Source: Psammoneis japonica
Taxonomy: Eukaryota
Direction: 5' to 3'
Assembly (NCBI GenBank): GCA_008632985.1
Contig: QPGO01000019.1
Coordinates: 310,001 to 374,000 of the forward strand
Length of the DNA: 64,000 nt
Shown: positions 11,201 through 56,649 of the stretch, one piece after another
Layout of the letters: each line of letters begins with the position of its first letter
How positions within the stretch are numbered: the first letter of the stretch is position 1
Notes under the pieces: model-generated
Seen by the model: the letters and a program-made list of their open reading frames with translations, nothing else
Told to the model about the DNA's origin: nothing
The model's database searches: none
Translations under genes and position numbers: made by a program

Positions 11201-11600
11201 GTCTTCCAATGTTTTTGTTCATTTTGTTGCAATGAACATTGTTCAAATGTTGTCACAGCAATGCAGGCACATGATGGTCATCAGTGGTGTCTGCATCCAA
11301 GGATGACAATGCACTGACCCTCTTCATTTTCACAGTCAATTGAACTGGCAGTCCTCCAGAAGACAATTGAGCTGGCACAAGCACTCCTTTGCACATTCCC
11401 ACTGAGAGAATCAAGATGTAAAACTTGAATGGAAATGGCTCACCAAGCTGCCAATGCATTGCCAAAAAGTGACACCAAGTGATGCTCTTGAACAAAATTG
11501 CAGCCGTTGACACCTTTTCTTGGATTGTCAAAAGACTCTGATCTTCCAACACTCTCTTTCAATGGAAAAAGGCGAGAATCCAAGGCAGAAACACTTGATG
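5300..11600. mobile_element. Unclassified, heavily degenerate repeat block lacking both TpA and CpG
   Basis: Near-absence of TA and CG; spurious Cys/His/Met/Trp-rich ORFs in all six frames; contains a tandem array. Confidence 0.65.
7130..8350. repeat. Degenerate tandem array of about 6-7 units of ~125-190 bp
   Basis: Recurring CCCAAGACAACTG(A/G)GCAC, GCTGGGCCAAA...CAGTCATGTCAGA and TTGACACAAGAC...TTCCCAACC motifs. Confidence 0.8.
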
Positions 11601-11984
11601 CCGCTTCCATGCTCCTGCCAGCAGTTCCTAAGACAGAGTCTCACTCTTTGTCTGGCTTCTTATTGCCGATGCAATTCTTTCTTTGTTTCAGTTCTACCTG
11701 GGCGGGTTGTCATCCTTGGGCAGACTTGAGGAGATAAGGACCAACAACTCTGTCTGCACTCCATGTTTTGCACACATCCTCTTGCTGCCGATGTGCACGC
11801 ATAATTCCTCCACAATAATCAGGATACCGTGCTCTATTTTATGCCAAGTGGTTGAAGCTTCTAAAATAAACTTAAGAACATCGCAATTAATTAATGGAGC
11901 GAAACCCCCGCGTATTCGCACCTGACCAGAAGTGGCCTCATTACGCCTCCTTGCTATTGTTCTCGTTCACGAGAGCCCACAGGT

Positions 11985-21595: not shown

Positions 21596-21701
21596 CCACC
21601 ATGCGTGTTTTCCCTAACACACTAACTACTTGAAGCCCCCAAGAATGCCCAAGAGAATTCCATTTTCTTTACCCGTATATTACTTTTTTCGCTAATTGAC
21701 A

Positions 21702-23028
21702 TCAAATAAGCTCCATTCTAAGCTTCTTTGCCGGACTAGCGTTGAAAACTGCCTCATAATCGTCTTGCACACATTGCTTACACCACGTGCCCGAGAAGAA
21801 TGCTCCAGCGCATGCACAATTGCTGCAAATGTCGGAACCACAAAGTCCACAGACCAACAATAGATCGCACGAGTTGCAATAGGTTTCACAGCAGAACTCG
21901 CAAGCCATGGAATTGCCACTAGTGCATGAGGAGCAAAAGGTTGTCCCACAAACGGCACAATAGGCGATACAATCCGTGCAAAGCTCGCAGAAATCTAGCT
22001 CACATATATTGCACGTTGCAGCTGGACACTTGCTACAAATGGCTCCTTCACAAGAACCGCACAACGCAAGGAGCTCGCATGACTTGCAATAAGTATCGTA
22101 GCAAACATCGCATGTCTCGTCATCCCGGCACGTGGCGCAAGCGCTAATCCCACAAGCAGCGCACTTTTTGACATCCATGCAATTCATGCAGAAATCGTCT
22201 TGACAAACATCACAATGGCCAATCCACATGCACCACGGTAGTTTGCGATTCATTCGATCTTGACAAAAGGTTCCGTTGCACATGGAGCAATTCTTGGGGA
22301 CTTTGCATTCAAGGCAATAGTGTTCATGGCAATTCGTGCACCGAAACAGAGGGGGGCAGCAGCTTTTGTTATTCTCTCGGCATGTGACTTTGCCACATCC
22401 CGCACATTCAAAGCAGGAAAGCGTGGATCCTTATGTTCCGTCACGACCTGAATCTTGCACGTGTCACATACCTGTTGGTTCTGCTTAAGCCTCTGGATCT
22501 TGCAAGCGTCAAGTTCATGCATAAACTCGATTTGCATTTCTTCATCGTCTTCATCAAGACAACTGCCCGGAATTTGAACACGATTCAACTTGTAGGGTAG
22601 CATGGACCGTAAAGTATCAATCAGCATGCTCTTGTTGTCTACAGAATCACCATTATAATACCACGTTCGAAAATGTACGTGCTCCAACACGCGTGATCCC
22701 CGAAGCACCGATAGACAACCCAGTCCTGAAAGGTTGTGTAAATAGATTGACATTTTTTCGTCACTTCTATTGCATTGACTCGTAGAAAAAGACTTTGCAA
22801 TACATCATCCGTAAGTTTGGCTTTCAAATGCTTGGGTACTAGTTTTGGAAAATCCATCTCTTCCCACAACCACGAGCACTCGCGATAAATGTGGGTCCGT
22901 GCATAGCGATTGCACGATGCCAATAAAGTCAATGCTGCGATATCCAAAAAACCAAGCACAAATCTGGATAACTCGGACGGTAAGCCGTCAAAGAGCTTGT
23001 TACGACAGGGTGGTTCCGCATCGTCCAT
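21702..23028 (-). CDS. F-box-like protein with C-terminal CxxC-rich region, copy A (apparent frameshifts)
   Basis: FDGLPSELSRFVLGFLDIAAL..LASCNR....W; many CxxC pairs; ends SPAKKLRMELI (NLS-like). Split over ORFs 22639-23028, 22250-22753 and 21702-22283. Confidence 0.7.
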
Positions 23029-23430
23029 GGTCGCAGAGCGCTAGCCCTATCTCCTCTGAATTTTGGCTGAACAAGATCCTGTGAGTACGGTACCGTAGTA
23101 TTGGGTACGGAAGGATATTTGTTAGTATCTTCTCTGAATTGAAAAGGATATTTGTTTATTGAATAAGCATTTTGGTTTTTTCTGGAGGTCTAAGTAGTAG
23201 TTTCGCTGTTTGCACTCGTGACTCGTGATTCAATTCAATCTTAAAATTTACACCGCTTCTTAGAGCGGCCACCTAAGGCTTACGCCCGATTTTCCCTTTC
23301 AATCCACAACCATAGATGGGGACAGAACGTCAATTTACAAAACAAGTGCACTTCTCGCATGCAGTTGTGGGGCGATGGTTGCTGCTCTTCATCGTCAGGA
23401 GAGGGCCTGCAGTCTTTTGGTGGCCGCTGG

Positions 23431-23706
23431 TGACAGGATTTGAACAGGATTTAGGTGCGCGCGAAATGTCGCGCGCTGTTTAGTTTACCGCGCACAGTTT
23501 TGTGTGCTTTAGTTCCGCGCGCTCGCGCGCGATGTAGTTTGCTTTCGAGCCACAAGGCTCACAAGAATAACAACAGCAGCCCGATCATACCGACTTACAC
23601 GTCTTTCGGCTCCTGTGACGGTCTCTGAGTGGAGACTCATCTGCTGTTTAGACAGCAGTAAGGAGTCATTGTTTGAATTCTTGCCACTTGCCTTCAATTT
23701 CTGTCA
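23431..23706 (+). repeat. 5' LTR
   Basis: Aligns without gaps to 30292-30567 with 17 differences, all transitions. Confidence 0.97.
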
Positions 23707-24646
23707 GATTGACAGTCTTGCTCATTGTCAACCCATTGAGCAACCGCCATCGTCGTCGTTGATTTACCAACGACGCTGTTTCAATTCTACGTGGACCTCC
23801 GTGTGTGTTCTACATACATCGGCAAGTCTACGCGCATTCAATGCCAGGGCATCGGCAGGAAGTTAACGTCACCGTCAAGTCTCCTTGCCGCTGGACATCT
23901 GGATTGATTGTGCCACCTTTGGTCGCTGAAGACATGCATTCAACGGTCACATCCAAGTCTGTCCTTGATCCTCATCCCTTGACACACCTGTTCATCGGTC
24001 AACGGTCAAGAACCCCACATGTTCAAGGATCTTCGTCGCTGAAGACATGTGTGTGTGTGCATGTCTTCACGGCCAAGAACCTGCACCCACTCTTCGGACT
24101 GCGGTTTTGCTGCCACTCTACAAGCACACCGAGTCCATTGCACCTGATCTACCCCGGACTGCTGGTGCTCTGCAGTTCTGCCAGGTCCACGAGGACGACT
24201 GTGAGAGCAAGTGGCCGTGACCACAGCCTGCGTTGGGGCGAGGGTGCTTTCCCGCGTTTGTTCGTTCGTCCACAGCGCCTGACGCCTGCGTCAACTGGCC
24301 AGCCTGATCGGGAAATCCAACCGATGTAAAACAAGAACGGTTCGGGGGTCTTGTCCACCTCCAGTCAGCTCACCTGCAGGGGTTTGCAACCCGCTGCTCT
24401 GCTCGCAAGCAACCCAAAGCGCCACCAGCTGCGGGTTTTCTACGTGCCGGCACAACTCTGCGGACCGGATGGGAAGTTTAGCACTTGACAACGAACGGGA
24501 TGGCAAAGCCCGGCGACTTCTGATTTCAAGATAGATCAAGATTTCAAGTCAAGTCCATTTCAAGCCAAGTCCATTCTCACCCAAGTTTCAAGTCCACCTT
24601 CGCTTCCCAACAAGAATTGATTGTCCTGACACCACTTTTGTCTGCC

Positions 24647-25795
24647 ATGGTTCTCACTCGTCAGCAACAAACCGATGGTTTCGAGCACGTTGTTGGAACC
24701 GTGCTTGCCCAAGGTGCTGGGAGCCCTCTTCGTTTGGCTTTGGCCCAAGACGGCACGGACTCGCATCAACAACTGTTCACGTTCACACCGTCCCAAATCG
24801 ACTCGCTTGAGTGCGACAACGGCACCAATGTCATCCCTTTGCCCCGTGGTTGTGAGAACATGTTAGCAGCTCTGGTTGGTCTGCACATTGTCAAAGCACA
24901 CAAAGGTCTTGACGTTGCCAATGACTTCTCGTTGTTCGCGCATGACGAGTTCCTTGCCTGCCGCCTCAGCCCCGACTGCATGTCTTCTGTGTCCATCGGC
25001 AGCTCACCCCTCGCACCTCCGCATGTCACCAACCCGACCAAGGCACGCGACCCGGTGCGGGACTTCAAACGAGGCATCAAGCGTGATCCCACCGCTTTCA
25101 CGGCTCTCAAATCCAACAAGCAGTGGCACACTTGGCACACCTCACTTGTGGCACAAGCCCGTGCCCAAGACGTCGAGTGCACTCTAGACTCGTCGTACAA
25201 ACCGACCAGCCCCGAAGACAAACTGCTCTTTGCTGAACAGCAAAAGTGCGTGTTCGCCGTCTTCGAACGCATCCTTCTCACCGACAAGGGCAAGGCTCTC
25301 ATCCGCGAAAATGTGGGGTCTTCTGACGCACAGACCGTCTGCTGAGCCTTGTCTGAGTGCGCGCTCGCCTCCACCCGTGCATCTGTCGAGTCCTCCACCC
25401 TGCCAACGTGCCTTGCCACCGCACGTCTTGGTGATGGTGCTTGGAAAGGTCCGACCCACGGGTTCATCCTTCATTGGCAAGATCAGTTGCGCAAGTGCGA
25501 GGCACTCATCCCGGCCAGTGACCACTTCTCTGAAGGACAGAAGCGCGTCATGCTCGAGAATGCCGTGCACCCTGTCGAGGAACTCCGTGCTGTCAAGAAC
25601 CAAGCTGATCAGCATCGTACGCAGAGTGGCAAGAGCCTCACATGCGATCAATGCTGTGGCTTGCTCCTCTCCGCGGCAGCCCAATGCGACAGCACGTTTC
25701 AACCCAAAGACGACACCTCGAGCTCCCCGCCGCGCCATGTGCACACACGACGTCTGCTCCGAGGAACCGTCCGACGATGTGTTCTACGACATTGA
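24647..25795 (+). pseudogene. copia gag, interrupted by TGA at 25343-25345 (probably CGA->TGA)
   Basis: MVLTRQQQ...DFKRGIKRDP.AF..LK...W..W...AQARAQDV...FAEQQKCVFAVF...FILHWQDQLRKCE. Confidence 0.85.
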
Positions 25796-28700
25796 CAGTG
25801 ACATTGACGTCCTTCAGGCCAGTGCTGCCTGCACCCGTGGTCCCAGCCTCACCGGTGACCAATGGAAACGTCTCCCTCCCGACCACCAACGGATTTGGGA
25901 TTCGTTGCCCCATTCCTCCAAGGCGATCATCCTTGAGCATTCTCGTCCGCCTCCCCGCAACCCGCGAGACAGCAACTGCCATGAGTCCGTTACGGCCAAC
26001 CTTCATGACCAACGCCTTGGGAGTGACGGTGATGTCAACTTGTCCAACACGACTCCTGCTGACTCTGGTGACTCCGCTCCAAATGTGGGTGCCACTTCGG
26101 ACAATCCCATCCTGGCGCACCTCACCAAGCACAAGCCACTGCCACCCGGTGATCTGCACTGTCTGTTGTCTCCTGACCAAGCCCCCAATGCCAGTCGACC
26201 GGGGCCATCCGCCGCTCCCTCTACCCCGCCAGCTTCTGCCGATGACATGGAACTTAACGGCCGCACTTGCTGCCACGTCAATGACCACAATGTCATTTGC
26301 TCTGCCTCTGCTCATCGCTCCACATGCACTGGTGCTCTGGTCGATCGTGGGACCAACGGTGGCATTGCTGGCGACGACGTTTGCGTCATTGCACGCACCT
26401 CTCGCCAAGTCGACGTTCAGGGCATTGACGACCATCAATTGGTGGACATCCCCATTGTCACCGCTGGTGCCGTCATTGAGACCCAGCGTGGTCCCGTCAT
26501 CGCCATCCTCCATCAGCACGCATGCACGGGAAAGGGCAAGACCATCCATTCCTGCGGCCAGCTCGAATGGCACAAACAGGATGTCAACGATCGCTCTGTC
26601 AAGGTGCCCAACGGCTTGCAACGTGTTGCCACTCCTGATGGCTGTGTCATCCCCATTGACATCAAGGCTGGCCTGCCTTGTGTTGCCATGCGACCTTGCA
26701 CTGACGCCGAGCGGGACACCCTGCCCCATGTCATCCTCACTGGTGATGACACATGGGATCCTTCCGTCCTCGATCACTCTGTCACTGACGACGACCAGTG
26801 GTGCGACGCGATCTCTGACCTGCAGGACGATCCCACTGCCAACCTGTTTGACGAATGCGGCAACTGCCGTCATCGTGTTGTTGTCAACGAGACCATCTTG
26901 TCCGCTTCCTTGTCTGCCGATCACGCGTCCGCCCCAGATGATCACCTCATTCCGAATGACGGCGTGTTCTGCAAGTGTCATCTACACGCGATTGACCCCA
27001 AGGACGATGACGTCCCGCCCCCGGAGCGCACTGTGCAGCCCAAGGATCCACCCTTCGAGTCTCTTTGGCCTCACTTTGGCTTCCCACCTGCTGATGCGGT
27101 CCGTCACACTTTTGACTGCACCACGCAGTGCGCCCGCATGCCCGCCGGTGCACACCTTAGGAAGGCCTGCAAATCACCCAACCCCGCCCTTAATGTGCAC
27201 CGCCGCAACGAGCCTGTCGCCACTGACACCGTTTGTGCCGACACCCCGGCCGTTGACTCTGGTTGCACCAGTGCCCAACTGTTTGTTGGCACCGAATCTA
27301 CTGTCACTGACATCTGCGGCACCAAGACGGACAAAGAGTTTGTCAACACACTCGAGGATCAGATCCGTGAGCGTGGTGCCCCACCCAAACTCATTGGCGA
27401 CCGTGCTCAAGTTGAGATCAGCAACAAAGTGCTCGGGATCCTACGGGCCCTCTTCATCTCCAGCTGGCAAAGTGAGCCTCACCAGCAACACCAAAACTTT
27501 GCCGAGCGTCGACACCAGACCGTGAAGCGCATGGCGAATGCTGTCATGGATCGTTTTGGTTCGCCCGCCCACACATGGCTGCTGGCGCTCATGTGTGTGT
27601 GCTTCACACTCAACCACACAGCGTCCCCACGTCTCCACTGGCGCACGCCCCTCGAGACTCTCACTGGCTCCACCCCGGACACCAGCCCATTGCTTCGCTT
27701 TCACTGGTGGGAACCCGTGCACTTCCACCTCGATGACTCCGATTGGCCGTCCGAATCCCGTGAGTTGCGTGGACGCTTCGTTGGCATTGCTGAGCACGTC
27801 GGCCACCAGATGACCTTCAAGATTCTCTCTGACGAGACTCAGAAGATCCTCTGCCGGTCCAACGTCCGCTCCGCTGCCACCGATCCTGCCGTTCGAAACC
27901 TGCATCTTGATCCTCCTGATGGGGAGCCACCTGAACCCATCATCAAATCTCACCATGACGACAACCCCGTCGATTCTTGCCATGGCAACAACCCCGTCGA
28001 TTCTCCTGATGGGGAGATCAGGACACCCAAGATGCCAGTTTTCGATCCGCAAGACATCATTGGACGTACCTTCCTCATGCAGCCACAAGAGGACAGACAA
28101 CGCCACAGAGCTCGCATCGTCAAGGCCATTGAAGACCACGAATGGAAAGTGAACGGCAATCCCGAGCTCACTAAATTCGTCTGCTCTGTCAACAACGACG
28201 AATGCGAGGAAGTCCTTGCCTGCAATGACATCATGAATCACATTGAGCAAGAAGACGAAGACACTGCTGTTTGGAAATTTCGACGCATCGTGTCACACGA
28301 AGGACCTCTGAAGCCTCACGACCCAACCTGGAAAGGCTCAAGCTACAACATCATGCTTGAATGGGAAAGTGGGGAGATCACGTCTGAGCCTCTTGCCATC
28401 ATCGCCAAGGACGACCCCGTCACCTGCGCCATCTGTGCACGAGAGAACGGACTCCTCGACACGGATGGCTGGAAGCGGTTCCGCACCATCGCGAGGCGCC
28501 AAAAGAAGCCATTTCGCATGGCCAACCAAGCCAAGCTTTGCTCCTTCCGCACTGCACCTCGCTGCAAGTACGGATGCGAAGTTCCCCGGAACTACAAACA
28601 TGCCATGTCACTAGACGAACGCAACGGCAACCGCAAATGGGGAGACGCAACTAATCTCGAGATGGACCAACTCGACGAATACGAAGTCTTCCATGACTGC

Positions 28701-30344
28701 GGGCCCTTCGAGTCTTCCACTCCTCCTGCGGGACACAAGAAGATCCGAGTGCACCCAGTGTGCGACGTGAAACACGACGGTCGCCACAAGGCACGACTCG
28801 CAGCCGACGGGCACCTCACGGACGTACCCATCGATGGTGTCTGCTCTGGAGCAGTCTCCCTCCGTGGCCTTCGGCTGATGATTTTCCTGGCCGAACTCAA
28901 CGAGTTGGAGACATGGGCCACCGACATTGGCAATGCCCACCTTGAAGCCACCACCAAGGAGAAGCTTTGCATTGTGGCCGGACCCGAATTTGGCAAACTC
29001 GAAGGACACATCCTTGTCATCCACAAGGCCCTGCATGGACTGCGCAGCTCCGGTCTCCGCTGGCATGAGCGCTTCGCCGACTGCCCACGAGCTGAAGGCT
29101 TCTTCCCCTGCCGCGCCGAACCCGACATTTGGATGCGCAGGAACGGCGACCACTGTGAATGCGTTGCCGTTTGTGTGGATGACCTCGCCATTGCCATGAA
29201 GGACCCTCAATCTTTCGTTGACACTCTCACGGAAAAGCACAAGTTCAAGCTCAAGGGTGTGGGACCCATTGAGTTCCATCTGGGTTGCGACTTTTCCCGG
29301 GATCCTGACGGAACCTTGTGCCTGTCTCCGCGCAAGTACATCGAGCGCATGGTCGACAGCTGCACCCGACTGTTTGGGGAGAAACCTGCCACCAACGCCC
29401 TGTCACCTCTGGAGAAGGGTGACCACCCCGAACTGGACACTTCTGAACTGCTGGGACCCGATGGCATTCACAAGTTCCAGTCTCTTGTTGGTTCACTCCA
29501 ATGGGCAGTGTCCCTTGGTCGAATTGACACCACCACGGCCGTCATGTCACTCTCTAGCTTCCGAGCTGCGCCCCGTCAAGGCCACCTGGATCGTGCCAAA
29601 CGCGTCTGTGGGTGCCTCTCCAAGATGCGACACGGTGCTCTCCGCGTTCGCACGGAAGAGCCCGACCATTCGGATCTCCCTGCTCCGGCCTGTGAGTGGA
29701 TGCATTCCGTGTGCGGCGAAGCAGAAGAGATGATCCCGAAGGACGCTCCACCGCCCCTTGGCAAGTTCGTCACTGCCACCCACCACGTCGATGCAAACTT
29801 GCACCATTGCGTGCTCACCGGACGCTCTGTCATGGGAATGCTCCACTTCCTCAACAAATTCCCTTCTGATTGGTTCTCTAAGAAGCAAGCCACCGTGGAG
29901 ACTGCGACCTGCGGGTCTGAATTTGTTGCCGCAAGGACTTGTGTCGAGCAGATTGTTGACCTGCGCATCACCCTGCGCCACCTTGGCGTCCCGATCCGTA
30001 ATGTCAGTTGCATGTTCGGTGACAACAAGTCGGTTGTAGACAGTGCCACCATCCCGCACTCCAAGTTACACAAGCGACACACCGCACTGTCGTTCCACCG
30101 TGTGCGTGAGGCAATTGCCTCTGGTTGCCTTGAGTTCCACTTCATCGAAGGCTCCCGCAACCCTGCTGACATCCTCAGCAAGCATTGGGGTCACTCCCAA
30201 ATCTGGGACCTTCTCCGCCCCCTCATGTTCTGGAACTTCATTTCATCCGAAGTCGAATCTGTTTCTGTGGCTCCTCAAGCAAACTGGGGAGTGACAGGAT
30301 TTGAACAGGATTCAGGTGCGCGCGAAATGTCGCGCGCTGTTTAG
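25740..30344 (+). pseudogene. copia pol (protease, integrase, reverse transcriptase, RNase H) with mutated catalytic and conserved motifs
   Basis: LVDRGTNGG (PR); ATDT..SEPHQQHQNFAERR (IN); HKARL, TDIGNAHL, ALHGLRSSG, CVDDL (RT); HVDANL, TCGSEFVAAR, GDNKSVV, NPADILSK (RH). Only 6 Tyr in the 1704-aa ORF. Confidence 0.95.
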
Positions 30345-30567
30345 TTTGCCGCGCACAGTTTTGTGTGCTTTAGTTCCGTGCGCTCGCGCACGATGCAGTT
30401 TGCTTTCGAGCCACAAGGCTCACAAGAATGACAACAGCAGCCCGATTGTGCCGACTTGCATGTCTTTCGGCTCCTGTGACGGTCTCTGAGCGGAGACTCA
30501 TCTGCCATTTAGACAGCAGCAAGGAGCCATTGTTTGAATTCTTGCCATTTGCCTTCAATTTCTGTCA
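30292..30567 (+). repeat. 3' LTR
   Basis: Preceded by AAACTGGGGAG and followed by the TSD GCTGG. Confidence 0.97.
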
Positions 30568-30572
30568 GCTGG

Positions 30573-31975
30573 CGGCCGAGTTGCAGCTTTCTTTGCAACC
30601 TCTGCCACTTCCAGCCAGCATCATTTGAAGTCAATGTCTTCAGCTTGAACTTCTTCCATTGTCCTGTCAAACCACCTGGCATGTTGGGGAAGGGAGTGCT
30701 GCTGGAATTTGGCCTCGTCTCGGGTGCTGGTTTCTCGGCCGCCCTCTCCCACATGCGGTGCTGCCACATGTCGTCCCATGCTGTGCTCCGCAACTGTTCA
30801 ATGAGTCTGGATGCCCACTGCAGTCCCATGTTCCTTTGTTCAAGAAATTTGCAGCATGCCTGTTGGGTTGTGCCACCCACTTTGCAGTCAAGAATCCTTT
30901 GACAAGAGCGCCATCTTGCCCAAGGTTTCTCTTGTGAGTCGAGTGCAGCCTGCACATGAGGATGGTCAGACACTGGGATCTTGTTGTGTTGCCCCTCACA
31001 CCAGGATTGCATCAGCCTGAGGATGCTGGCTTGCAAGTCTGGGCAAGCCAGTTGTTCTGTTGGCCATTTCTTGAGATTCTCCATCTTCTTGGTCCAAAGC
31101 CCTGCATCTCAAAACATGATCTGTCCCATCGTCTCCATCCTCTCTGCATTGTGAGCAGGTGGAACTTTCCAGTTTTTTTGACAGCAAAGATTTCTGTTCA
31201 TTGACAATGAACCAGTCTTCCATCTTGGTTGCCACAGTTGATGGAAAGTGGGGCATCTGCAAATTGCAACCCACAGCTTCCCTGTCAATTTTGGCATGAG
31301 TGGGCTCCGGATCAAGTCTCTTCTGTGCCAGCACAACTCTGCCGGCAGACCATGCACATGTTCTGGAACCATGCTTGGCTGCCACAATGTCAGTGTCTTG
31401 TCCTGGAGTTTGATTGGCCAGATGGGTTGCAGCACTTTGCGCGGCATTGCGTCAGATGATCTCGCAATGCTCCCCAGCAAAAGAAGCCTTGGCCAGCAAG
31501 CCCATCTCCACATTGAGCTGTTCTGCATGAGTCAGTTCATGCAGTGGCTTGTGTTTGTTCTTGTGTCTGTCAACTTCTTCTGCCCCAATGACAATTGGCA
31601 GCTCTTGCACCATCAATCGCATTGGATGTGTTTGACCACAATTTGTCAGCTTGGGATCATCACAGGATTTGAAGAAGCAAGTCCACAAACTGACATCACA
31701 GCAGTCACAGGCCAACACCACCTTTCCATGTGCAATGTTGCAGTGTTTGCATGGCCTCCTGATGAAGGCAATTGGGCCAAAGATGACACTCAACTCCTTT
31801 CTGTAAAGTGTCAAATCTGTGCTGTCACCTGGAGTTTGGTTGACTCCTCGACAGCGGTGAGTGTGTGCTTTGCTTGGCAGCAATGTCATGCCTGCTGTTG
31901 CCAATCCTTCTTTGTAAGAGCCATCCGCAACACAGATGGCAGTGCCTTCTTTGACTCCTTTGACTGGAGCCTCTA
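30573..31975 (-). mobile_element. Degenerate 3' part (RNase H and Cys/Trp-rich tail) of a diatom non-LTR (Ambal-like) retrotransposon, into which the copia element inserted
   Basis: Fragments PGDSTDLTLYRKELSVIFG, VVLACD, EVDRHKN...LTHAEQLNVEMGLLAK, CSQCREDGDDGTDHVLRC and WASRLIEQLRSTAWDDMWQHR. Confidence 0.65.
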
Positions 31976-32335
31976 AATCCAGCTGGAACCCATGGGGAAT
32001 GAATGACCACTCTGCATTGCTGAGAGGTCGTTCTAGGTTCTAGTGCACTCGGTGGAAGAACAGGCGAAGTGTAATCCGAGTTGGAAGTGCATCTGGAGGT
32101 AACTGTGAGACGCAACCGTTTGGTTGATGGCAAGCGCTGTGACTCCTTCGTCTTTGGGGTAGTCTTGTGTGCATGACTCAACCCGAGTGTTGATCCGCTT
32201 AAATGCTCTATTTTCTTGGGGTGAATACATCCACGGTGTGCTAGAATGTCATTACCATATCTACTTTCAGCACCCAAGATTCCCCAAGAGAACTCTTTTA
32301 CGCTGCCCATATATTACTTCTTCCGCTCAATGGCC

Positions 32336-33692
32336 TCAACTAAGCTCCATCCTGAGCTTTTTCGCCGGACTGCCATTGAGAACTGCCTCGTAATTGTCTT
32401 GTACACATTGCTTACACCACGAGCCCGAGAAGAATGCTCCAGCGCATGCACAGTTGCTGCAAATGTCTGCCCCACAAAATCCGCAGACCAAGAATGGATC
32501 GCACGAGTTGCAGTACGTTTCACCGCAGCACTCGCAAGCCATGTTGGAGTTGTTGCGACCACTACATGAGGAGCAAAAGGTTGCTTTACAAGCGGCACAA
32601 TCCGCGATGCAATTCGTGCAAAGCTCGCAGAAATCTAGATCACATGTATTGCACGTTGCCGCTGGGCAATCGCTGCACATGGCTCCTCCACAGACCCACA
32701 CAACGCAAGGATTTGGCATGTCTTGCAATAACTACGGCAGCAGGTATTGCACGTTTCGTCATCTCCGCAAGTGGCGCATGCACGAATTCCACAAGCAGCG
32801 CACCTTTTGACATGCATGCAATGCATGCAGAAATCGTCGTGACAAACATCACAATGAACTACCCATGAACACGATGGTGGTTTCGTGGGATTTTTCATTG
32901 TGGGATCATGTTGACAAAAGGTTTCGTTGCACATGGAGCAATTCTTGGGGACTTTGCAACCAAGACAAAAGTGTGCTTGGCAAAGCGAGCACCGAAACAG
33001 AGGGGGGCAGCTTTTGTTTTGTCTCGACGGCATGACACTTTACCGCATTCCACACATTCAAAAGCGGGAAACCGTAGATGATCTTCATCCGTCACGAGCT
33101 GAACCTTGCACGTGTCACATACCTGTTGGTTCTGCCGGAGTCTCTGTATCTTGCAAGCGTCAAGATCACGCAAAAACGCACATTGCATTTCTTCATCGTC
33201 CTCATCAATACCGATTCTCGGAAATTGAACACGATTCAATTTGAAGGGTAGCATCGATCGTAAAATATCAAATAGCATCCTGCTCTTGTTGTTGTTGTCT
33301 ATAGAATCATCATTATGATGGTACCACGTTCGAAATTGTACGTGCTCCAAAACGCGTGATCCCCTTAGCACCGATAGAGCCCGTAGTCCTGAAAGTTGAT
33401 GTAAATAGATTGCCAATTTTTTCGTAACTTGGAGAGCATTGACTCGTAAGAACAGACTCTGCAATGCATCATCCGTAAGTTGTTTTTGCGACTTGACGGA
33501 AAGTTTGAAAATGTCAATTTCTTCCCACAACCACGAGCACTCGCGATAAATGTGGGTCCGTGCATAGCGATTGCACGATGCCAATAACATCAATGCTGCA
33601 ATATCTAAAAATCCAAGCACAAATCTGGATAACTCGGACGGTAAGCCGTCAATGAGCTTTCGGGGTGGTGGTGATTCCGCATCGTCGTCCAT
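32336..33692 (-). CDS. F-box-like protein with CxxC-rich C-terminus, copy B (paralogue of 21702-23028; apparent frameshifts)
   Basis: LIDGLPSELSRFVLGFLDIAALMLLASCNRYARTHIYRECSWLWEE is almost identical to copy A; ends SPAKKLRMELS. Confidence 0.75.
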
Positions 33693-33971
33693 GGTCACAG
33701 AGCTCTCCTTCTTGAAAAAAATGCCGTTGGCTGCGAGATCCGGTGAGTTTCCAACCAATAATTGCTAATTGAATATATAATAATTATAGTATCATCTCTG
33801 AATTATATTAGAAAATTGATTCATTGAATTAGCAATTTTGATTTCATGTTCCAAGTCGATGTCGGTGCCAATTGCAATGGCGTCTCGTTTTGTGATTTTC
33901 TCACCAGTTCCTGTTTACATCCTTGCGATTTCTGCTGGAAGGATTACTAGTGTACTCTTATTTGAAGCACC

Positions 33972-37600: not shown

Positions 37601-37965
37601 TGGATCGCCCTGTTTCGTGTAGAGTTCACGACCAATTGTCTTTGTTCACAACTGAGTGCATTTTTCAACATGCCACGCCGGCAATCCCAATTTTACAGCA
37701 CTTTCGAGCTCTCCTGAAAAACCGTGCCACGCACCCGTCGCAGGGAATTTGTCGATTTTTTAGGATGTCCCCACGACCTCTCATGTCCTCAATGATCATT
37801 CTGCGAATCCGAAGAATTCATCTGTGCTGAACAACCCACCCCGTTCCAAAATCCGAGGGACACACTTTCCGACCCCCCGACCCCCCGACTGCCCGACTGC
37901 CCGACTGCCCAACTGCCGGACCGACATGAAAAAGTCTGCAATCACCAACCACTGAGTGGTCAATG

Positions 37966-40900
37966 AAAACCCGGGTGTGGCACCCGGGTTTTCACATTGG
38001 CGACAGCCGTTAGACCAAAAAAACAAATGTGCATTGACAACGGACTAAATCCCTTTTAGCCCTCTCTTCATCACTGTTGATCCATGGCGCGCGCAGCAGC
38101 AACCGCCACAAACCGATTGCCAGCTGCTGTGCCAAAGATTGTGGGCGCCACACCCCAGTTTCTGGGGCGATTGTCCTGGGTTTTCGTGCGCGATCTGTGC
38201 GCCGTAACCTGCCGGCATGTTTGTACGAAAAAATGAGCGGCAGTGCAGCATCAAGCTCGGCATGAAACGAACGTTGCTGCTGCAACAACAAAAGACGAAT
38301 TGAAGAAGAGTGCTGTGGCGGCGCTTTTCAACCAAGGTGCTGTTGATGCAGCGGCGGTGGCTGGACCAAGCTTGCCATCTTGTGTGAGACGAGTTGGCCG
38401 TGATGAACCATCTGGTGAGCTCAATCTAGAAGAAGCGCTGGAGGAGGCCAATGAAGAAGGTGATGGAGGTGACTCCGATGAGGAGCATGAAATTGCCGAC
38501 ACGCACGATGACACAAGGGCTGACGCCTTTGCTGATCGGCAAAGAGCCGTGGTCAATGGCGAGTCTGATGAACAGACAGTTGAAGTGAATGACACCACTT
38601 CGTTGCTGCTTCACCGCGGGGATGTCGAGCACCCCCACAATCTTCACATCCCAGTGCCGCCAACTGACTGGGTTCCTTCAGCTCAAAAGGTGCAACAAGG
38701 CGAGCCTGAGTTCACGGATGCAGACAATCCAGGCGGCTGGAGTCAGTTCACCTTCCGCCCTGAATTTGATGCCAAGGGCGCCAAACAATGCTTGCGCCAT
38801 TTGCTCCCAACAGGTGCCGCTCCTGTTCCCGAAGATGAAGAAGGGAGACGTCTGGTCAACAATTGGGAATTTTTTTGTGATGGGTGGACACGTGAAAGAT
38901 CATCCCATTTTGTTCCTGATGATGCTGGAGTGACGCCATCCCTGTCAAACAGGAGTGGAGCATCAAAGGACAATCTGTTCCCAGAATGCAGGAAGGGCCA
39001 CTTGGATCTGGCAATGCTGAAAGCGCTTGGCATGACGAAGGAAGGAATCAGCAATCATGATGCTCTCTTTTTTTATCAGTTGATTTTACCAGTTTGCGAC
39101 ATTTCAAAGTCGGGTGTCGACAATGATCCACGAAAGCCGTTTTACACAGAGGTTGAAAGGTTCTCTAACTTGCACGCTTTGAGAGACCCAAATCTGTTCA
39201 GCTCGCATGGGCACAGTGCCAACATGGTTGCTGCAACAGAGTTGGTGCATTTTGATGGTGGTGTGGTGGTTCGTGATGGGGTGAGAGGTGGCAGTGATGG
39301 CGCCATTCATCGACGGTGGCAGAGCGGATCAGACTGTGATTCAACAATGTCAACGGCGATGCACCACACCCGCTGGCTCCAAATGAAGCATCTGATCAAG
39401 CTTTGCGACAACAGTGCGGCGCCACAACGTGGAGAGGATGGGTGTGACCCAGCACGCAAGCATTCCATGCTGTGTGATGTCATCACACACAATGTGAATG
39501 CGATCACTGGAGTTGAAGACCTCGACATTTGTGGTGACGAAACAACGTGGGGGCGTGCAGGTTACGGAGAGGCTGGCAGCGGATTGACTGGTAGAATCGC
39601 TGGGAAGCCGGGCATCACAAAGGGGGGGCAAACAGTCATTGTCAGTGACGTGCACCGCATTCGACCGCAAGCGTGTCTACATCGTCACAAGCTTCATCTG
39701 AAGCCTCAAGGTTGGGGAGCAATGGGCCCGCTTGAAGTGCGAATGATGATGGAGCAAACAGCACCCATGGTGCAAACTGTCGGGAGCAATGATGATGATG
39801 GAGGGCCGAAGAAGATGTTCATGGGCAAGCCTCATGGCACTTGGGACAACTGCTTCTCAGGCGACCAGATTGTGGACTGGCTTGGCCAAAATGGATTTTC
39901 TGCAACTGTGACATGTCGTTGAGATCGCCTCCCATCCGGAATCTCTGCAAAGCATTTTCACAAGAAGGCGACGCGGGTGGATGACAGGTCACGCAGTGAA
40001 GACGGTCCCCAGATCGGATGCGAACAGGGAGTGCCAACGGCTTCATTGTTCATTTCAATCTACCTCCTCCTGCAACATTGCAACGGTGAACGCTCTCAAC
40101 AAATGCTCAAAATTTGCAACACATCGTGAACAAGGCCAGGGAAGAAGCAAGCGCCATTGGGGCATTGAAATGAACGAAGCAAGAATGACGCACCTCAGCA
40201 CCTGCTCACGAATTGATTCTGTTGATCATTTGATGAAGAATGCACACATGTTTTGTCGATCGTGGAAGTGCTGGCACTCAGCAATGCTGCATGGTAAGAA
40301 GCTTGCCGCAACAGTCGTGTGTGACATCTGTCTTGAATGTTGTGAAGGGAATGTCGATCCTGAGTGGCGCGATGACAATCCCACATCATTCTGGTCGTTT
40401 CGAGACAGGTGTTTGGAGCAAATGTTGGAGTGCAAGCCGGAGCGTCGCATGTGTCCTGGAGACTCAGCAATGAGAGTGTCAACCCAACAAAACCAGCAAC
40501 GCCATGACCGTTCGGTCGACAGCGCACCTCGCTTGACTGCCACAACGGGTGAGGTCGTCACAACAACTCAATGCCGGGAGGCAAAACGTGGTGGCCATTC
40601 ATCCCGCTTGTGTGGTGACCTGACACAATTGCGGAGGCACATTGATGGAGTGGAGACGGGTTTGAAGCACCCGTGTCTTTGTGTTTGGTGTGGCAAAGAT
40701 GCACACACGCGATGCAACGTCTGTGGGAAATTCGTGCATTGTTCAGCGTCCCACCATGGGAAACATGGTGATGAGAATTGTTTTTTTCTCTGCCATGATG
40801 AAGGATTGTTTGGTCTTGCACGAGATGACACCAAACTTTTTGTTTGCAAGCGCAAGTCAGATTGGAAAGAGCCGTCGCAAGCAAGAAAGCGGGTGAACGC

Positions 40901-41285
40901 GACTCACATTCAAGACATTCGTCAAGGATGCAGCAACCCTGAATGGCAAGTGTCTGGTTAATTGGCATCACACATAAATCACATTTCTGTCAAACTGCTG
41001 CTGGCAAAGCAGAAAAATGAGCATGACTGATGCATTGACAAAGCAACAATGCCGGGTGCAGGAACCACAATTTTGATGTGGGCGTTGCACCCGCATGAAC
41101 AAACCGGGTGTGGCACCCTCTTTTCAAATGAGGGCACCACACCCACATTAAAAACCCGGGTGTGACACCTGCTTTTCAAGTCGGTGCACCACACCCGCAT
41201 AAAAAACCCGGGTGTGACACCCGCTTTTCAAGTGGGTGCACCACACCCACGTGAAAAAAACCGGGTGCAGCGCCCTGGGTTTTGG
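37966..41285 (+). mobile_element. piggyBac-like DDE DNA transposon with imperfect terminal inverted repeats; transposase pseudogene ~38084-40961
   Basis: RWLQMKHLIKLCDN, GCDPARKH, DICGDETTWG, TWDNCFSG, IDSVDH and C-terminal CVWCGK..CNVCGK.VHC...CF..CHD; in-frame TGA at ~38234 and 39920. Left AAAACCCGGGTGTGGCACCCGGGTTTTCAC resembles the reverse complement of 41250-41284; ~50-bp subterminal repeats at 41095-41280. Confidence 0.75.
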
Positions 41286-42059
41286 CACCAAGACTAAACG
41301 ATGAGAGCAGGTCACAAAATGCGTCTGCTTCATGTCTTTTGTGTGTGGGATTTGCATCGTCATTGGTTGTTGGAGAAACGCGGAGGAGGCTTGTAGAATT
41401 TGTGCACATTTCTGCACAACACCCCAAAATAAATTGCATGTCCATCCGGCCGTTGGACATTCGTGCCGGCATGTGGGTCAGCCGATGCGTTGGCCGGGCA
41501 AAGCACAGACAGAATGTGTGCATCATGGGGCGGGGCGGGGGGTCCAAACAAACACAAACATCATGTTGTGCCAGCACCTTTTTAAGTTTTTGTAATGGAA
41601 ACAAAAGGAGGAATCACACACTGAAAACAAAAAGAGGAGAAAGGACAGGAGGGAGGGAGATGCGCACCTGCCAGGAGAGGAGCGAGAGAGCACACTTGGG
41701 AGCCCGGCATGGCGGAGTTCTTTTGCTCGTGCCATTTACAAAAAGAAGGGGGGGGGGGGGGGGGGGGCAGAGGATGTGCACAGAGAGTTGTGGAGAGGCA
41801 AACAATGAAAATTTCAAACAGGTTTTCCAAACAATGAGAAGCAAAAACCCTCAAAAACTCTCAAACAAGCGATGCAGCGCACCACTGTTGTTGCCAGCAC
41901 ACACACACACAAGACAGCAGCAGAGAAAACACTGGGGTGGAAAAAGAAGGGGGGGGTTGGGGGGGGGGGGACAAACAGTGGTGCAGGAGGGTGCTGCACA
42001 GAGACTTGCGCACACCATCCATGACACTGTGTTGGTCTTGTTGTCACATGCGCAAGACT

Positions 42060-42900
42060 CTGTTCCAGTTTTTGCAAGAAGAAATCTTCCTCATCTCTCT
42101 GCCAAAGTCTCCCCGCTGGAGGACAACAAGGAGGTTCCAGACCTGGGAGCAGCCCCAGTGCTTGCTGAGAATGTCAGCCAGGTTGTGGGGACCTTTGATG
42201 AAATGAAACTGGAGGCAATTGCCTTGCACACATGGTGGAATGAGAGGGCGGTGTGTTGCTTGTGCAACTTGGAGTGTGAGGGATTGTGGCACTGTCCACA
42301 ACCAACTTGTTGTCCCCAAACACACAACATTTTTCATGAGTGGGGGTGCCAAGGTGATGCAGAGTGATTTTCAGATCAATGATCTGCTCAACGCATGTCC
42401 TTGTGGCAAAACAAACTCAGATCCATGCATTGCAGTCTCAACTGTTGCTTGTTTCTTGGAGAACCAATTGGCTGGAAACTTGTTGAGGAAATGAAGGATG
42501 CCAGTGACAGAGCATCTGACAAGCATGCAATCATGGAACAAGTTTGCATCAACGCAGTGAGTTGTGGTGACAAACTTGCCAAGTGGCTTGGGCACATCTT
42601 GTGGGAGCAGCTCTTCTACCTCCCTGCACATGGATTGGGCCCAGTCACACCACACGGGCTTGGGAAGGTCCAAATGGTCGGGTCACTTGGTGCTCACTCG
42701 GAGGGCACCATGTCGCATCTTGGACAGGAATCTGCAGACATGTTTTGCATGGTCTGGATGGCCTTGACGGGGTGCTGCATGGAAGCCAGACAGGGACATG
42801 ATGGCCGCAGTGATGTCAACATGGCCAAGGGACACAGCCCACTGCAGGGAGCCAATCAAGGATTGGAGCTGGTGGATGCCATCTGGTCCAAGTGATTCGG
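42060..42900 (-). mobile_element. Older copia RT/RNase H fragment related to the 23431-30567 element
   Basis: PKPLGKFVTTTHCVDANLFHD...RCSVTGILHFLNKFPANWFSKKQATVETAMHGSEFV, HSKLHKQHTALSFHHV and NLADILSKHWGCSQVW. Confidence 0.85.
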
Positions 42901-45450
42901 AGGTGTCAAGCTCAGGGCTGTCTCCTCATTTTGTGATGCATTCTGGGCGCAGGTGGGAATCCGTGTGACACGCGATGCAAACCATTTTTGCCACAAGCAG
43001 CATGTCATGCACGTGCACATTTCTGAGTGTGCTCTTCCACAGAATTGTTTCATGCCACATGTTTTGCAAAACCAGAGGTTTTCTGTTTTTTTTGTCCAGT
43101 TTTGTAAGAGAACAAAAATGAGCCAGCTGCACTCTTCAGTGTCTGAAGAGCGCAGCTGGGCAAACAAGAAATGGCACAGATTTCAAGCACACATGAGTTT
43201 GAGCATTCAAAAAATTGCCTCTTTTTCTGTTTGCAGTCATCACCACATTCATTGCCTGCCAATTTTGCTGCAGAACTCACACATGCAGAATTCTGTGACC
43301 CAGTGTCATGCACAGATCCCCCCACCTGTGGCTGGAGAGCACACCAGGATGGATCCAGCTGGAGAGCCACTCTGCCCAATGACAAATGTTGAATTTGAAC
43401 TGTGCCACACCCAGCGCATCCATGTCAGACAGAAGCAAGACATGGCCCACAGTGAACATGCTGATCAGTGCACATGTGGTGCACATGATGCAGCGGTGCT
43501 CTCATGATGAGATGCACACATGTGGGCTGACTGTGGGACACTCTCCACCATGAGCCCACATGTTTGTTTGACCACATCACGTGCCCTTCACACACCACCA
43601 GTTCACCACAAAAATTCTCACAGAGCTGGAATGGACAGCACACCAGAGGGGGGAGGTCATGCTGTGTGAGCACTGCGTGTCAAAGTGGAGTTCCAGAAGT
43701 GGCCAAACCCTCTGCAACACCACCAAGGCATTCCACACAAAACACAAATGAGGTGCCAATCACATGATGGTTGTTTGTGCCATCTTGTCAATGCCACAGA
43801 CTTTGACACTGCACAACAAGAACAACTGTTGTCAAAAAACTTGTCACAGAAGAAGTGAGCCATGGCACTGCTTGGAGTGGAAAAAATTGGTGGCCACTTC
43901 ACTCAACTTTGTGTCTGAGACTGAACAAGTGTGCAAAATCATTCACTTTTTTGTCATTGGTTGTTGTCATGTGCTCCACTCTGTTGCACCTTGAAAGCAA
44001 TGGCAAGGAAATGTGTTCGTCTTTTTGTCATCATTTTGTCGCAGCAGCACTGTCTTTCTTGCAGCTGATCTGTCATTTTGGCATTTGTCACAAAATGGCT
44101 TTTTGCAAAAAACAGCATGCTTGCCAACAGACTCCAAAAGCTTTTTCTTGTTGTCATCCAGGTTCTCCCAGTCTGCTCACCAAAACCTTGTGACGCCATT
44201 GTTTGTTGGTGTGTCTGTGCAAGAGAGTTGGCAGGGTTGGACCACATCTCTGAGGTTTGAGGTGCACGCAGCCCGCAGCCAGTCTGGGGCCTCATTCACA
44301 GTTGGGTGGTGTCATGGTTTCCAGAGCTTCTTGGGGAAGATTTCTGCAAGCTGGTTGCAGCATTGGTTTTTTCACACAGAAGCAAGTTGCCAGCAACGTT
44401 GCTGTGACAGCAACAAAATTGCTGGAAATGCCTTTGTGATGGCAGCCACATGATTTTGCCATCTCATTCATTGTGAGAGTGCACAGTGAGACATGAATGC
44501 ACTGTTGAGCAGAGAGCCAAAAGTCAACAAGCCAAGGAAGGGGAAGCAGCAAGAGGAGGCATGGAGAGAGCTGCAGGGGTGGGAGCAAAGAAGGGGCATG
44601 CAAAACAGCATGAAGGGTTTAAGAAGGGATGGGAGATGCATCAGTGCATGGCTTGGAGAGGAATTGGAGGACGTGGGCAGATGAGTGGTGAACAACATTG
44701 CAGCTGAGAGTTTGGTTGGCCCATTGAGATGGGGCAGAGGAGTGGTGAGAGGAGCCAAAGTGGTCAGCAGTGAGTCAACACCCCAGCCGAAGTCAGCTCA
44801 GGATAAAAGCACAGATGGCAAGGTGAGCACATGGGAAAAGGCAAAACAGGAAGGGCCAGAGCCTTGAAGAGCAGTGGCATCAGACCAAGGTGGCTTGAGC
44901 TGAGAGCAGTGGGTGGGAAAGGAAGTGCCAAAGAGGATGAAGCAATGGAAGAAGCAGCCAAGACCAGCCACCTGGGTGATCAACAGCAAAAGCAAAAAGG
45001 AAGACCCATCATCTTGTTTGAGGGATTGAATGGAGAGGGAGCTGCCGGAGAAGGGCAAAGTGGGTCCAAGAAACTTTGACCATGCACTTGCATGGTGTGC
45101 CTCAGTTGAAACTGGAGAAGAAGAAGCGCGCAGACTGGGAGGAGGGCGAGGGGAGTTTTGGGAATGGCTGCATCAACAGCGAGGATGCAGTGACACAACG
45201 ATGAGAAGGGGCAGCAACAGATGCAGGAGGAGGGATGGCAATGCCAATGTTGGCTGGGCGAAGAAGGGGGTGGGTTAAGAGAAGATTCGCAAGCTCGAGA
45301 CAAACATCGTTGGGCGTGTTGCACAGCTTGGCAATGTCACCCAAAGTTTGAGCAATGGTGAAGGCTGCAGCATCTCGGGTGCCACCCGTTCGATGGTTTG
45401 GATTTGTGATTGCCAGCACAGGTGAAGGCATGAGCCTGATGTGGCATTTT
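42900..45450. mobile_element. Unclassified degenerate repeat, TpA- and CpG-depleted; partly an inverted copy of ~52900-53340
   Basis: 43190-43300 (AAAATTGCCTCTTTTTCTGTT...TGCAGAACTCACAC..CAGAATTCTG) matches the reverse complement of 53070-53175. Confidence 0.65.
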
Positions 45451-54700: not shown

Positions 54701-56250
54701 CCGCCCTCCCACTGGGGATGCCTGGAGCTGATCTGGGACAAAAGGATGCAAGATCCCCCCCAGCGCAGCAATGGGTTGCCCGCACCACTGAGATGCTCAT
54801 TCTCACATCAATGCAGCCACATGCATCTGAGCACAGCTTTTGCCACTTGCCAAGCCAGTCTTGATGAGATCCCACAGAGCATCACTTTGGCTTCTTTTCT
54901 TTGCCAGCCAGCCTGTTGTGTGAAAATGATGACATTGCCAAAGGCAAGGCTTGAGATGCTTGCACTTTTTCTCATGTTTGTGGTTCTGGCATCTTGGATG
55001 GGCGTGACTTCATGCCCGCATCTGGGGTCATCATGCAGCAAGCCACATCTGCCACCAAGCCCCTCCTTCTCCCCAAAATCTCATGGCTGGAACATCTCTC
55101 CATGGCTGCCATTCTTGGGCTTGTTGGTGTTTGTGTTGCCCAAGGAACTGTTGGAATTGCTTGGGCTTTCCAAGATGTGACTGGCAGGGTTGACAAGAGG
55201 TTCGCTGCGTGTGCAGAAAGGCCTGCAAGCCTTTCTCCAGCTGCTGGGTCATCATTGGGTTGGCCATTGCGCAGCACACTTTGTCATGTCATGAGACAAC
55301 TGGGCCACCCTTCTTGCACTGAAGAGCACGGTTGATGATGAAGAATTTACACCTGCGCCCATCACAGCACTTGCTGAGGTCTGGTGGAGCATCATCGTGC
55401 CACAAGTGAAGAACGTCTCGCAGAATTGTTGGGACAAGAGCTCTGTGCTGTTCAGCAGTGCCATTGGTGTGCTGACAGCCAAGCTCCAGCTTTGGTGCCA
55501 TGCTTGACAGCTCTGGCCATGAGGTTGGGTGGAGTCCTGAGAATTGTTTTGAGGGTCTCCTGATCTGCTTTTGCTTTCTGCTCAGCTGCTTCTCATTTCA
55601 CTTTGGGTGAGGTGCATGCAGACCTTGGCATTTTGTGCACACAAAGCTTGTCAGTGTCTGAGCATTTCCTTTGCTTTGAATGCTGGGGAGTGGTCATGCG
55701 GCACATGAAGAGTCGTCATGTCCAGTGTCATTTCACAAAACAAGCTCTTGGGGGGGGGCACTGACCATCGTGGCCGTGTTGCAAGCAAAAAATTTGGTGG
55801 TTGTCAGTTTGCAATGACGTGTTTGTGGCTGCACAAGTGAGTGAAAGTTCTGGCATGTGACACAGCACGCTGCAGTGTGGACACTGGTGTTGGTCTGGCG
55901 CCGTCTGGTTGGCTCTGTCAGATTGGCCATCAGTCCAAGATGCATGTGCACCACTCAACTCATGCAAAAGGGCAGTGAGTCATCATGTGTGACAGTCAAA
56001 TTGATGCAAACTCACCATTTGTTGCACACGCAAGATCTGCGAACTCATGTTGCATCCGAATGCTCTGTGACAAGTTGCAAATCGATGCAGGCTCATCATG
56101 CAACGCACATGTGACTTTGACAGACGGGCCACTTCCGTCACAGACTTGTGGCTTGGATGTGAAGCACGGTGAAATTCAGAACAAATCATGCAAATCACGA
56201 GCCATTCGGCCGAATTCGAGCTAAAAAAGTAGCAAATGACCCCCCTTAAC
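48800..56250. mobile_element. Stacked copies of an unclassified degenerate repeat family, TpA- and CpG-depleted
   Basis: Direct similarity between 49090-49640 and 51795-52230, and between 50600-51450 and 52740-54150. Confidence 0.65.
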
Positions 56251-56649
56251 AGTCACACACACACACACACTCAGTCAGTCACTCACTCAGTCACAAATGC
56301 CGGTGGTCAGTGAAATCAATCATCGAGGACATGCATTGATTGTGTGTAGGGCTCTATGAAATATAAGTTGGTACCGGCATTTATTGCTGAATATTCTCTA
56401 TTTTCCAATTTTTGCACCATAGCTACACTACTGTATGTACTGTACTTGTACTACCGTACACCTGCGTACGGTATGTACGTACTGATTCGTATGGTAGCCC
56501 CCCATACGTGCGAGTTCTTAGCCTAAAAATGTCTTGTCTGAGATGCGATGCTTGTTTCGTTTTTGCGATTTGCGAGGAGACTTCTTGTCACCCTCACTCG
56601 CCCCACATGGAACATTGATCATTACATTGTCTGTTTTTGCATCGCTGAA

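Follow-up and report, generated by a model that had tools for sequence, protein, structure and literature searches.

What kind of process strips a retrotransposon of almost all of its TA dinucleotides, turns most of its conserved tyrosines into cysteine or histidine and leaves its pol frame free of stops? The question is raised by a Ty1/copia long terminal repeat (LTR) retrotransposon in a 64,000-nucleotide stretch of contig QPGO01000019.1 (positions 310,001 to 374,000; hereafter the window, in whose coordinates all positions are given). The locus is very probably explained as a dead copia element in a domain of the chromosome whose integrated DNA is subject to a TpA-specific mutator, at rates set by the flanking bases, a process of the same kind as that reported for Bigelowiella natans (Mettrop et al., bioRxiv 10.64898/2026.01.13.699255). 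In the window itself the changes are specific to TA, fall on both strands, arise after integration, follow a hierarchy of neighbouring bases and extend over the DNA as domains.

The focal element is a dead Ty1/copia LTR retrotransposon, with the following features.

23426-23430, no strand: left copy of the target-site duplication, 5 bp, GCTGG (from the letters of the flank and LTR end; the same five bases stand 3′ of the 3′ LTR).
23431-23706, plus strand: 5′ LTR with TG...CA ends, lightly mutated, 10 TA left (direct repeat, TA counts).
24524-25345, plus strand: open frame of gag type, not in register with pol (its translation has the N-terminal block of the homologue consensus).
25188-30344, plus strand: stop-free frame of 1718 aa in the protease-integrase-reverse transcriptase (RT)-RNase H order of Ty1/copia, with Tyr nearly absent (open reading frame, Pfam, homologues).
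28300-28900, no strand: less mutated patch inside the element (intermediate state at 28451-28850 in the segmentation).
28725-29360, plus strand: RVT_2 RT domain, residues 1180-1391 of the frame (Pfam PF07727, E=5e-20).
30292-30567, plus strand: 3′ LTR, heavily mutated, 3 TA left (direct repeat, LTR comparison, TA counts).
30568-30572, no strand: right copy of the target-site duplication, GCTGG (flank letters).

The direct repeats, spanning 23430-23707 and 30291-30568, are 94 % identical, and the perfect 5-bp target duplication indicates a normal insertion. As the gag-like part and pol lie in different frames, at least one frameshift has occurred and the copy is dead. The 1718-aa frame matches more than 1500 copia polyproteins from public metagenomes at 62-73 % identity; among named protein clusters the closest one is eukaryotic, with Bacillariophyta as its commonest group, which says little about the host. 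The length of this frame is no sign of activity, because A:T>G:C changes cannot make TAA, TAG or TGA from a sense codon, and the process thereby accounts for elements of this sort having long open frames without being active, so that such frames are no evidence of activity.

The composition of the frame is markedly altered. Tyrosine accounts for only 6 of its 1718 residues (0.35 %), with Cys at 3.9 % and His at 5.1 %, compared with medians of 3.8, 0.97 and 3.6 %, respectively, in 120 homologues; the observed/expected ratio (o/e) of TA is 0.12. Alignment with 47 full-length homologues yielded 53 columns with Tyr in at least 50 % of rows, at which the element carries Cys 25 times, His 12 times, Phe six times, Tyr five times and other residues five times. 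Within the RVT_2 domain, the family's conserved Tyr before the VDD motif reads Cys (column 1329, Y>C). When consensus-Tyr columns were pooled over 169 further homologues, Cys occurred in 4 of 4431 positions, whilst the element has Cys at 14 and His at 6 of 25. Four of the five conserved Tyr codons that it retains (28344, 28569, 28593 and 28680) lie in the patch at 28300-28900, where TA density is 9 per kb, compared with 3-5 elsewhere in the element. A mild form of the same pattern is seen in one full-length metagenomic relative, P0072 (a protein of 1888 aa from an environmental assembly), which has Cys at four and His at three of 33 consensus-Tyr columns, those replaced including the Tyr before the RT VDD motif.

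With regard to specificity, 725 columns conserved in at least 80 % of the 47 homologues were assessed, and the element differs at 121 of these. Single A>G/T>C changes inside TA number 34, as against 7 outside TA, with the remainder comprising 13 G>A/C>T changes, 28 transversions and 39 columns needing more than one change. The proposal that A:T>G:C change is confined to TA is thus borne out, and by the same counts the 5′ T is strict. Ordinary DNA of the same window behaves differently: a paralogous pair in normal DNA, at 21623-23042 and 32258-33706, has 216 mismatches (101 transitions and 115 transversions), with only 25 transitions touching TA, and hence an ordinary spectrum. These paralogous segments, each of 1.4 kb, are 81.6 % identical, flank the element approximately 10.6 kb apart and carry minus-strand frames of F-box-like and Cys-rich character. 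Chance or codon bias as the cause is ruled out by the homologue controls at Tyr columns together with the paralogue control. GC content is 55-59 % in the mutated blocks and 43-49 % in their flanks. The copia family itself is present at high copy in the single sample holding the stretch (13781 contig pieces), and of the 40 variant rows listed, out of 506, there are 26 in which a TA of other copies is TG or CA in the element.

Both strands are affected about equally. Relative to 24 unmutated loci of the family, TA falls from 51.7 to 5.0 per kb, with TG rising by 16.5 per kb and CA by 18.9 per kb; the similarity of the two gains excludes editing of a transcript or of a single cDNA strand as the main source. 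The strict strand asymmetry that an earlier note on this DNA had held to be incompatible with its proposal is therefore absent. The LTR pair provides the timing. All 17 differences between the LTRs are transitions, and at seven of these sites a TA of the 5′ LTR has become TG or CA in its 3′ counterpart; in five of the seven the context is TAC on either strand, the same count as was given previously. At two further sites one LTR has CA and the other TG, indicating independent changes of one ancestral TA, so that 11 of the 17 differences lie at 9 TA sites. Since LTRs are identical at integration, at least 11 TA-site changes arose later and in place. The process, then, acts on integrated DNA.

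Two short (TG)n runs, at 23802-23807 and 24048-24059, occupy positions that hold (TA)n in other family copies, and all eight listed changes in them fall on one strand. Some coordination of this type is predicted by the context dependence described below, as a TG product lowers the opposite-strand rate at the next step; it may also be that a processive event on one strand produced these runs.

Which TA steps are lost first was assessed from those that remain, in a comparison requiring no ancestral states. The TAs left in 30.5 kb of mutated blocks (n=107) were set against those in 26.25 kb of normal blocks (n=1212), with Y a pyrimidine and R a purine.

YTAR: 62 survivors, 184 in normal blocks.
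YTAY: 22 survivors, 328 in normal blocks.
RTAR: 19 survivors, 316 in normal blocks.
RTAY: 4 survivors, 384 in normal blocks.

The contexts of survivors differ sharply from those of the normal blocks (chi-square p=3e-28), and the surviving TAs are scattered rather than being copies of one repeat unit. Survival per adenine is 0.007 for TAT, 0.056 for TAC, 0.084 for TAG and 0.199 for TAA, reaching 0.645 for TTAA. A Poisson model, in which each block had its own 'age' and each 3′ base its own rate, was fitted against two baselines, namely normal window DNA and 68 metagenomic relatives, giving rates (with TAC set to 1) of 2.4-2.5 for TAT, 0.71-0.77 for TAG and 0.11-0.24 for TAA. A model separating only pyrimidine from purine improves on one that ignores context (p=1e-24 to 1e-27) and puts TAR/TAY at 0.26-0.33 over the whole window, and the four-rate model is better again (p=1e-15 to 1e-18). 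By part, the focal element taken alone gives a TAR/TAY ratio of 0.46-0.53 (p=0.001-0.003), the block 38251-41300 one of 0.35-0.42 (p=0.004-0.007) and the old blocks one of 0.21-0.27 (p=1e-22 or less). In all three parts TAT is fastest and TAG slightly below TAC, the TAT rate in the focal element alone being 3.8-4.2. At +2, surviving TAs are A-rich and T-poor, with G near baseline. The preference for TAY over TAR on either strand, as put forward in the earlier note, consequently stands as an average, and equal rates at the two were not found; the actual order at +1 is T > C ≥ G >> A.

The 68 metagenomic loci served as a baseline only, and one of the search patterns used to fetch them contained Tyr, which biases against mutated copies; examined for hypermutated sister copies, these loci yielded only L054 with a lowish TA o/e (0.31). 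An attempt to infer the strand of change by product counting, on how far the four-mers NTGN and NCAN exceed their normal-block levels in mutated blocks, was dropped, as young blocks and all blocks gave inconsistent results, the sums did not equal the TA loss and the baseline misfitted.

Context also bears on which of the two products appears. For the 37 Cys or His codons at consensus-Tyr columns, the Cys:His ratio is 7:7 after a 5′ purine and 18:5 after a 5′ pyrimidine, the latter departing from one half (18 of 23, p=0.011). The proportions agree with a hand tally in the earlier note (11:8 and 20:5 among approximately 44 codons judged ancestrally Tyr), albeit in a smaller set. When rates derived from survivors were used to rank the two strands, the change lay on the faster one at 22 of 29 informative Tyr sites (p=0.008), and over all sites together the outcome lay on the faster strand in 32 of 48 (p=0.03). 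TA steps next to CG appear over-represented amongst survivors in the element, at 11 of 37 compared with 17 % in the family (p=0.045) or 12 % in the window (p=0.003). Protection of TA by an adjacent CG is unproven; at Tyr codons, a hand tally gives 7 of 9 TACG mutated and 19 of 22 other TAC.

Several points weigh against this account of the hierarchy and its support. The contrast between purine and pyrimidine in the Tyr tally is weak when taken alone (Fisher p=0.15), and outside Tyr codons the outcome test is likewise weak (4 of 7 LTR sites and 6 of 12 sites defined by other copies). The TAA rate is unstable: the focal element gives approximately 1, the block 38251-41300 gives 0.2-0.3 and the old blocks give values close to 0. 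The TTAA excess in the old blocks may derive partly from TA regenerated by ordinary G:C>A:T mutation or from a misfitting baseline. The difference between C and G is small (0.71-0.77, standard error of the log 0.15). Survivor tests further assume an ancestral NTAN make-up like that of normal window DNA or of the 68 metagenomic relatives. Finally, the sequencing-run data consist of four rows from one study and one sample, which is probably the source of the window, and so are not independent of it.

The reach of the process extends well beyond the element. Segmentation and per-100-bp counts within the 64-kb window define a mosaic with sharp borders, in which five mutated blocks, none with a strand, have TA o/e of 0.00-0.28 and TG and CA o/e mostly of 1.5-2.3, whilst the genic blocks between them have TA o/e of 0.45-0.76.

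1-2550: mutated block, depleted in TA and CG and enriched in TG/CA (dinucleotide o/e, segmentation).
5351-11650: old mutated block, TA o/e 0.02-0.28, CG 0.08-0.34 (dinucleotide o/e, segmentation).
23900-31900: focal mutated domain, TA near zero from approximately 23900 (per-100-bp counts, segmentation).
37651-45450: mutated block whose left part keeps CG and whose right part has lost it (dinucleotide o/e, segmentation).
48801-56200: old mutated block, 15 TA in 7.4 kb, 13 of them YTAR (dinucleotide o/e, segmentation, survivor list).

The borders of the focal domain are not those of the element. The domain starts approximately 470 bp in from the element's left end, so that the 5′ LTR is little affected, and extends 1.3 kb beyond the 3′ LTR into older DNA where TA is 0 and CG near 0. 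Insertion seems to have taken place at the border of a block already mutated, the state of which then apparently spread over the element, and the target would be regional and of a chromatin type rather than recognized by repeat length. As for what the blocks contain, the focal block holds the copia element with its LTRs, target duplication and RVT_2 domain; a Pfam search with the 10 longest frames of the mutated blocks tested returned no family above the cut-off.

CG has been lost (o/e 0.05-0.3) in 1-2550, 5351-11650, 30573-31900, 41351-45450 and 48801-56200, where TG and CA reach 1.7-2.3, whilst the two youngest blocks, the focal element and 38251-41300, keep it (o/e 0.74-0.96). As these young blocks are poor in TA yet retain CG, TA is lost much faster than CG. 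Both symmetric pyrimidine-purine steps, TA and CG, thus end as TG/CA within shared domains, TA being the earlier to be lost, and the CG decay suggests CpG methylation in the same silenced chromatin. The borders of the domains and the co-depletion of CG tie the process to silenced chromatin rather than to repeat length.

A process of this description has been reported once. In mutation-accumulation lines of B. natans, two integrated viral regions received 231 of the 302 new mutations, almost every one being A>G/T>C and all of those on TpA, giving TpG or CpA, at a rate of approximately 6e-7 per site per generation, some 1000-fold over background, and directed at silent foreign DNA, according to the preprint's main text (Mettrop et al., bioRxiv 10.64898/2026.01.13.699255). 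The same text describes 124 genomic clusters of windows poor in TpA and rich in CpA+TpG, with TpA-poor genes enriched in reverse-transcriptase and DDE domains, and its authors propose, without demonstrating, an ADAT2-type DNA adenine deaminase (10.64898/2026.01.13.699255). The window resembles that case in the almost exclusive A>G/T>C change on TpA, in having both TpG and CpA as products and in the foreign or mobile nature of its target, here a copia element; moreover, the five blocks, with TG and CA o/e mostly of 1.5-2.3, agree with the bounds that the preprint gives for its clusters (TpA o/e ≤0.43, CpA+TpG o/e ≥1.52). Searches of the literature on TpA, diatom and LTR-retrotransposon hypermutation returned papers on fungal repeat-induced point mutation (RIP) or nothing relevant, the Bigelowiella preprint being the sole report found. 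The phenomenon is therefore already in print for one alga. What is new relative to the main text of that report is the flank hierarchy, the proof from the LTRs of action after integration, the domain-like extent with its mismatch between domain and element borders, and the co-location with CG decay; the words 'trinucleotide', 'context', 'flanking' and 'CpG' are absent from that main text, whilst its figures or supplements may hold flank data.

As a mechanism, a TpA-specific mutator would turn TA into TG or CA, that is, make an A:T>G:C change at either base pair of the TA step, with TA changing roughly two orders of magnitude faster than anything else. The outer neighbour would set both which pair changes and how fast (TAT 2.4 : TAC 1 : TAG 0.7 : TAA 0.1-0.2), such that TA steps extending an alternating purine-pyrimidine run would be erased first and TTAA would persist longest. 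The agent is presumed to be an enzyme acting on silenced chromatin, with deamination of adenine to inosine as the first guess and oxidation or other modification of thymine as the second. Enzymatic deamination of deoxyadenosine is accordingly offered here as a hypothesis. TA being its own reverse complement, 'A in TAY' and 'T in RTA' are one observation, and the sequence cannot tell which base is altered.

Which enzyme might be responsible is a matter of weighing specificities. A strict requirement at -1 combined with a graded preference at +1 is the usual shape of deaminase specificity, and a deoxyadenosine deaminase of the TadA/ADAT family, recognizing a TAY motif and converting A to inosine on either DNA strand, is a tentative candidate: the 5′ T is strict and A before a pyrimidine changes faster on average. 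An ADAT2 homologue is also the candidate named in the main text of the Bigelowiella preprint (10.64898/2026.01.13.699255). TadA and ADAT2-ADAT3, together with TadA-derived base editors, share with the present process the A>G outcome and the need for a 5′ U or T. The earlier note saw a resemblance to the TadA motif, which the counts do not sustain. The TadA target is U33-A34-C35-G36 (UACG) within a loop, as described in portions of two papers (PMC10586758, PMC10027721). Of this signature only T at -1 is found here: C is not preferred at +1, where T exceeds it approximately 2.4-fold and G nearly equals it (TAT 2.4-2.5, TAC 1, TAG 0.71-0.77), and G is not preferred at +2, with TACG not lost first in the hand tally of Tyr codons and making up 12 of the 28 surviving TAC in the element, compared with 2012 of 7286 (28 %) in the family baseline. 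The target also differs in its setting, since TadA, in the parts of the literature consulted, acts on a hairpin loop and here both chromosomal strands are changed; a structural requirement of that kind for the target adenine is unlikely where TA is lost almost completely over kilobases. The resemblance is accordingly weak and limited to the 5′ T. Fungal editing ascribed to ADAT2/3 favours A or G at +1 in the published excerpts on it, the opposite of what is seen here. The hierarchy, with its +2 effect, constitutes a fingerprint against which candidate enzymes can be judged, since each would have to show it in vitro, and it argues against a simple TadA-like or ADAR-like specificity.

Modified thymines at TpA occur in dinoflagellates, as 5-hydroxymethyluracil, and in trypanosome telomere repeats, as base J. 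The target might be the thymine of TpA, altered in silenced chromatin by a TET/JBP-type oxidase or other modifier to a base that pairs with G and yields T>C. The palindromic TA step lets every count fit this explanation equally well, the order simply reading ATA > GTA ≥ CTA >> TTA, and an epigenetic mark is a closer parallel than stray deamination for a target that is a symmetric dinucleotide and lies in regional domains with loss of CG as well. Against this, 5-hydroxymethyluracil paired with A is weakly mutagenic, we know of no report of a modified thymine in an organism with this TpA signature, and a literature search on 5-hydroxymethyluracil with TpA and transposable elements returned nothing relevant, leaving the explanation an improbable one. 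Far less credible still is A-to-I editing of the transcript by an ADAR-like or ADAT-like enzyme, fixed by reverse transcription before integration, even though A-to-G hypermutation of retroelement or viral RNA is a known kind of event. Such editing predicts A>G on the coding strand only, whereas TG and CA gains are about equal; LTRs that were identical at integration differ by 11 TA-site changes; and the mutated domain runs 1.3 kb past the element. ADAR, moreover, favours G or A at +1 according to the portions of the literature seen. One-strand hypermutation of the ADAR type before integration is hence contradicted by the LTR and strand data. An artefact of base calling or assembly at modified TA sites is just as remote. 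Modified bases can give systematic A>G consensus errors on some platforms, and the supporting reads all come from one sample; however, separate assembly of the runs gives contigs with identical letters (3122 pieces at ≥99 % identity), and the pattern is graded with age and accompanied by CG decay, replacement of conserved Tyr and variation from copy to copy. A real process of this kind is, furthermore, documented by Illumina mutation-accumulation data in one alga, as given in the preprint's main text.

The proposed mutator of integrated DNA in a silenced domain invites comparison with other systems that edit mobile elements. It shares with fungal RIP the transition hypermutation of repeats, the dinucleotide preference, the regional action on both strands and the inactivation of transposons in place. 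Unlike RIP of ascomycetes, in which C:G>T:A change, mostly CpA>TpA, makes TA and stop codons, TA is here destroyed, GC is raised and no stops arise; the RIP signature of C:G>T:A change with TA enrichment was looked for and rejected on these grounds. Nor does the locus conform to simple targeting by repeat length as in RIP, as the high-copy 5′ LTR is the least mutated part. With ADAR and APOBEC it has in common the use of editing as a defence against mobile elements, but ADAR (double-stranded RNA, one strand, G or A at +1, on the published passages seen) and APOBEC (C>T/G>A) are unlike it in that neither yields symmetric TA>TG/CA change after integration.

Hypermutation of TpA to TpG or CpA represents a newly reported and mechanistically unexplained eukaryotic genome defence. 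A broader proposal can be entertained with some reserve: that of a chromatin-domain-directed editor of double-stranded DNA, acting on the symmetric TpA step with a preference for alternating purine-pyrimidine runs, beside CpG decay in the same silenced domains, and erasing transposons without stop codons, the altered base perhaps being thymine. Were this correct, and the host one other than B. natans, marine algae would widely possess a 'reverse RIP' as a genome defence, the nearest named relatives of the element being copia elements of diatom type.

A number of other features lie in the window.

42062-42925, minus strand: remnant of another, related copia element, from its RNase H end (tblastn 54 % amino acid identity; blastn 74 %).
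7196-8339 and 1173-1989, no strand: degenerate tandem arrays in old mutated blocks, with units of approximately 140-200 bp at 67-93 % identity.
56542-63999, plus strand: open frame of at least 2486 codons in normal, unmutated DNA, running off the end of the window.

The last of these encodes a protein kinase domain (E=1e-34) together with a match to family-2 glycosyltransferases (E=7e-10), and is an unusually long, uninterrupted multi-domain gene.

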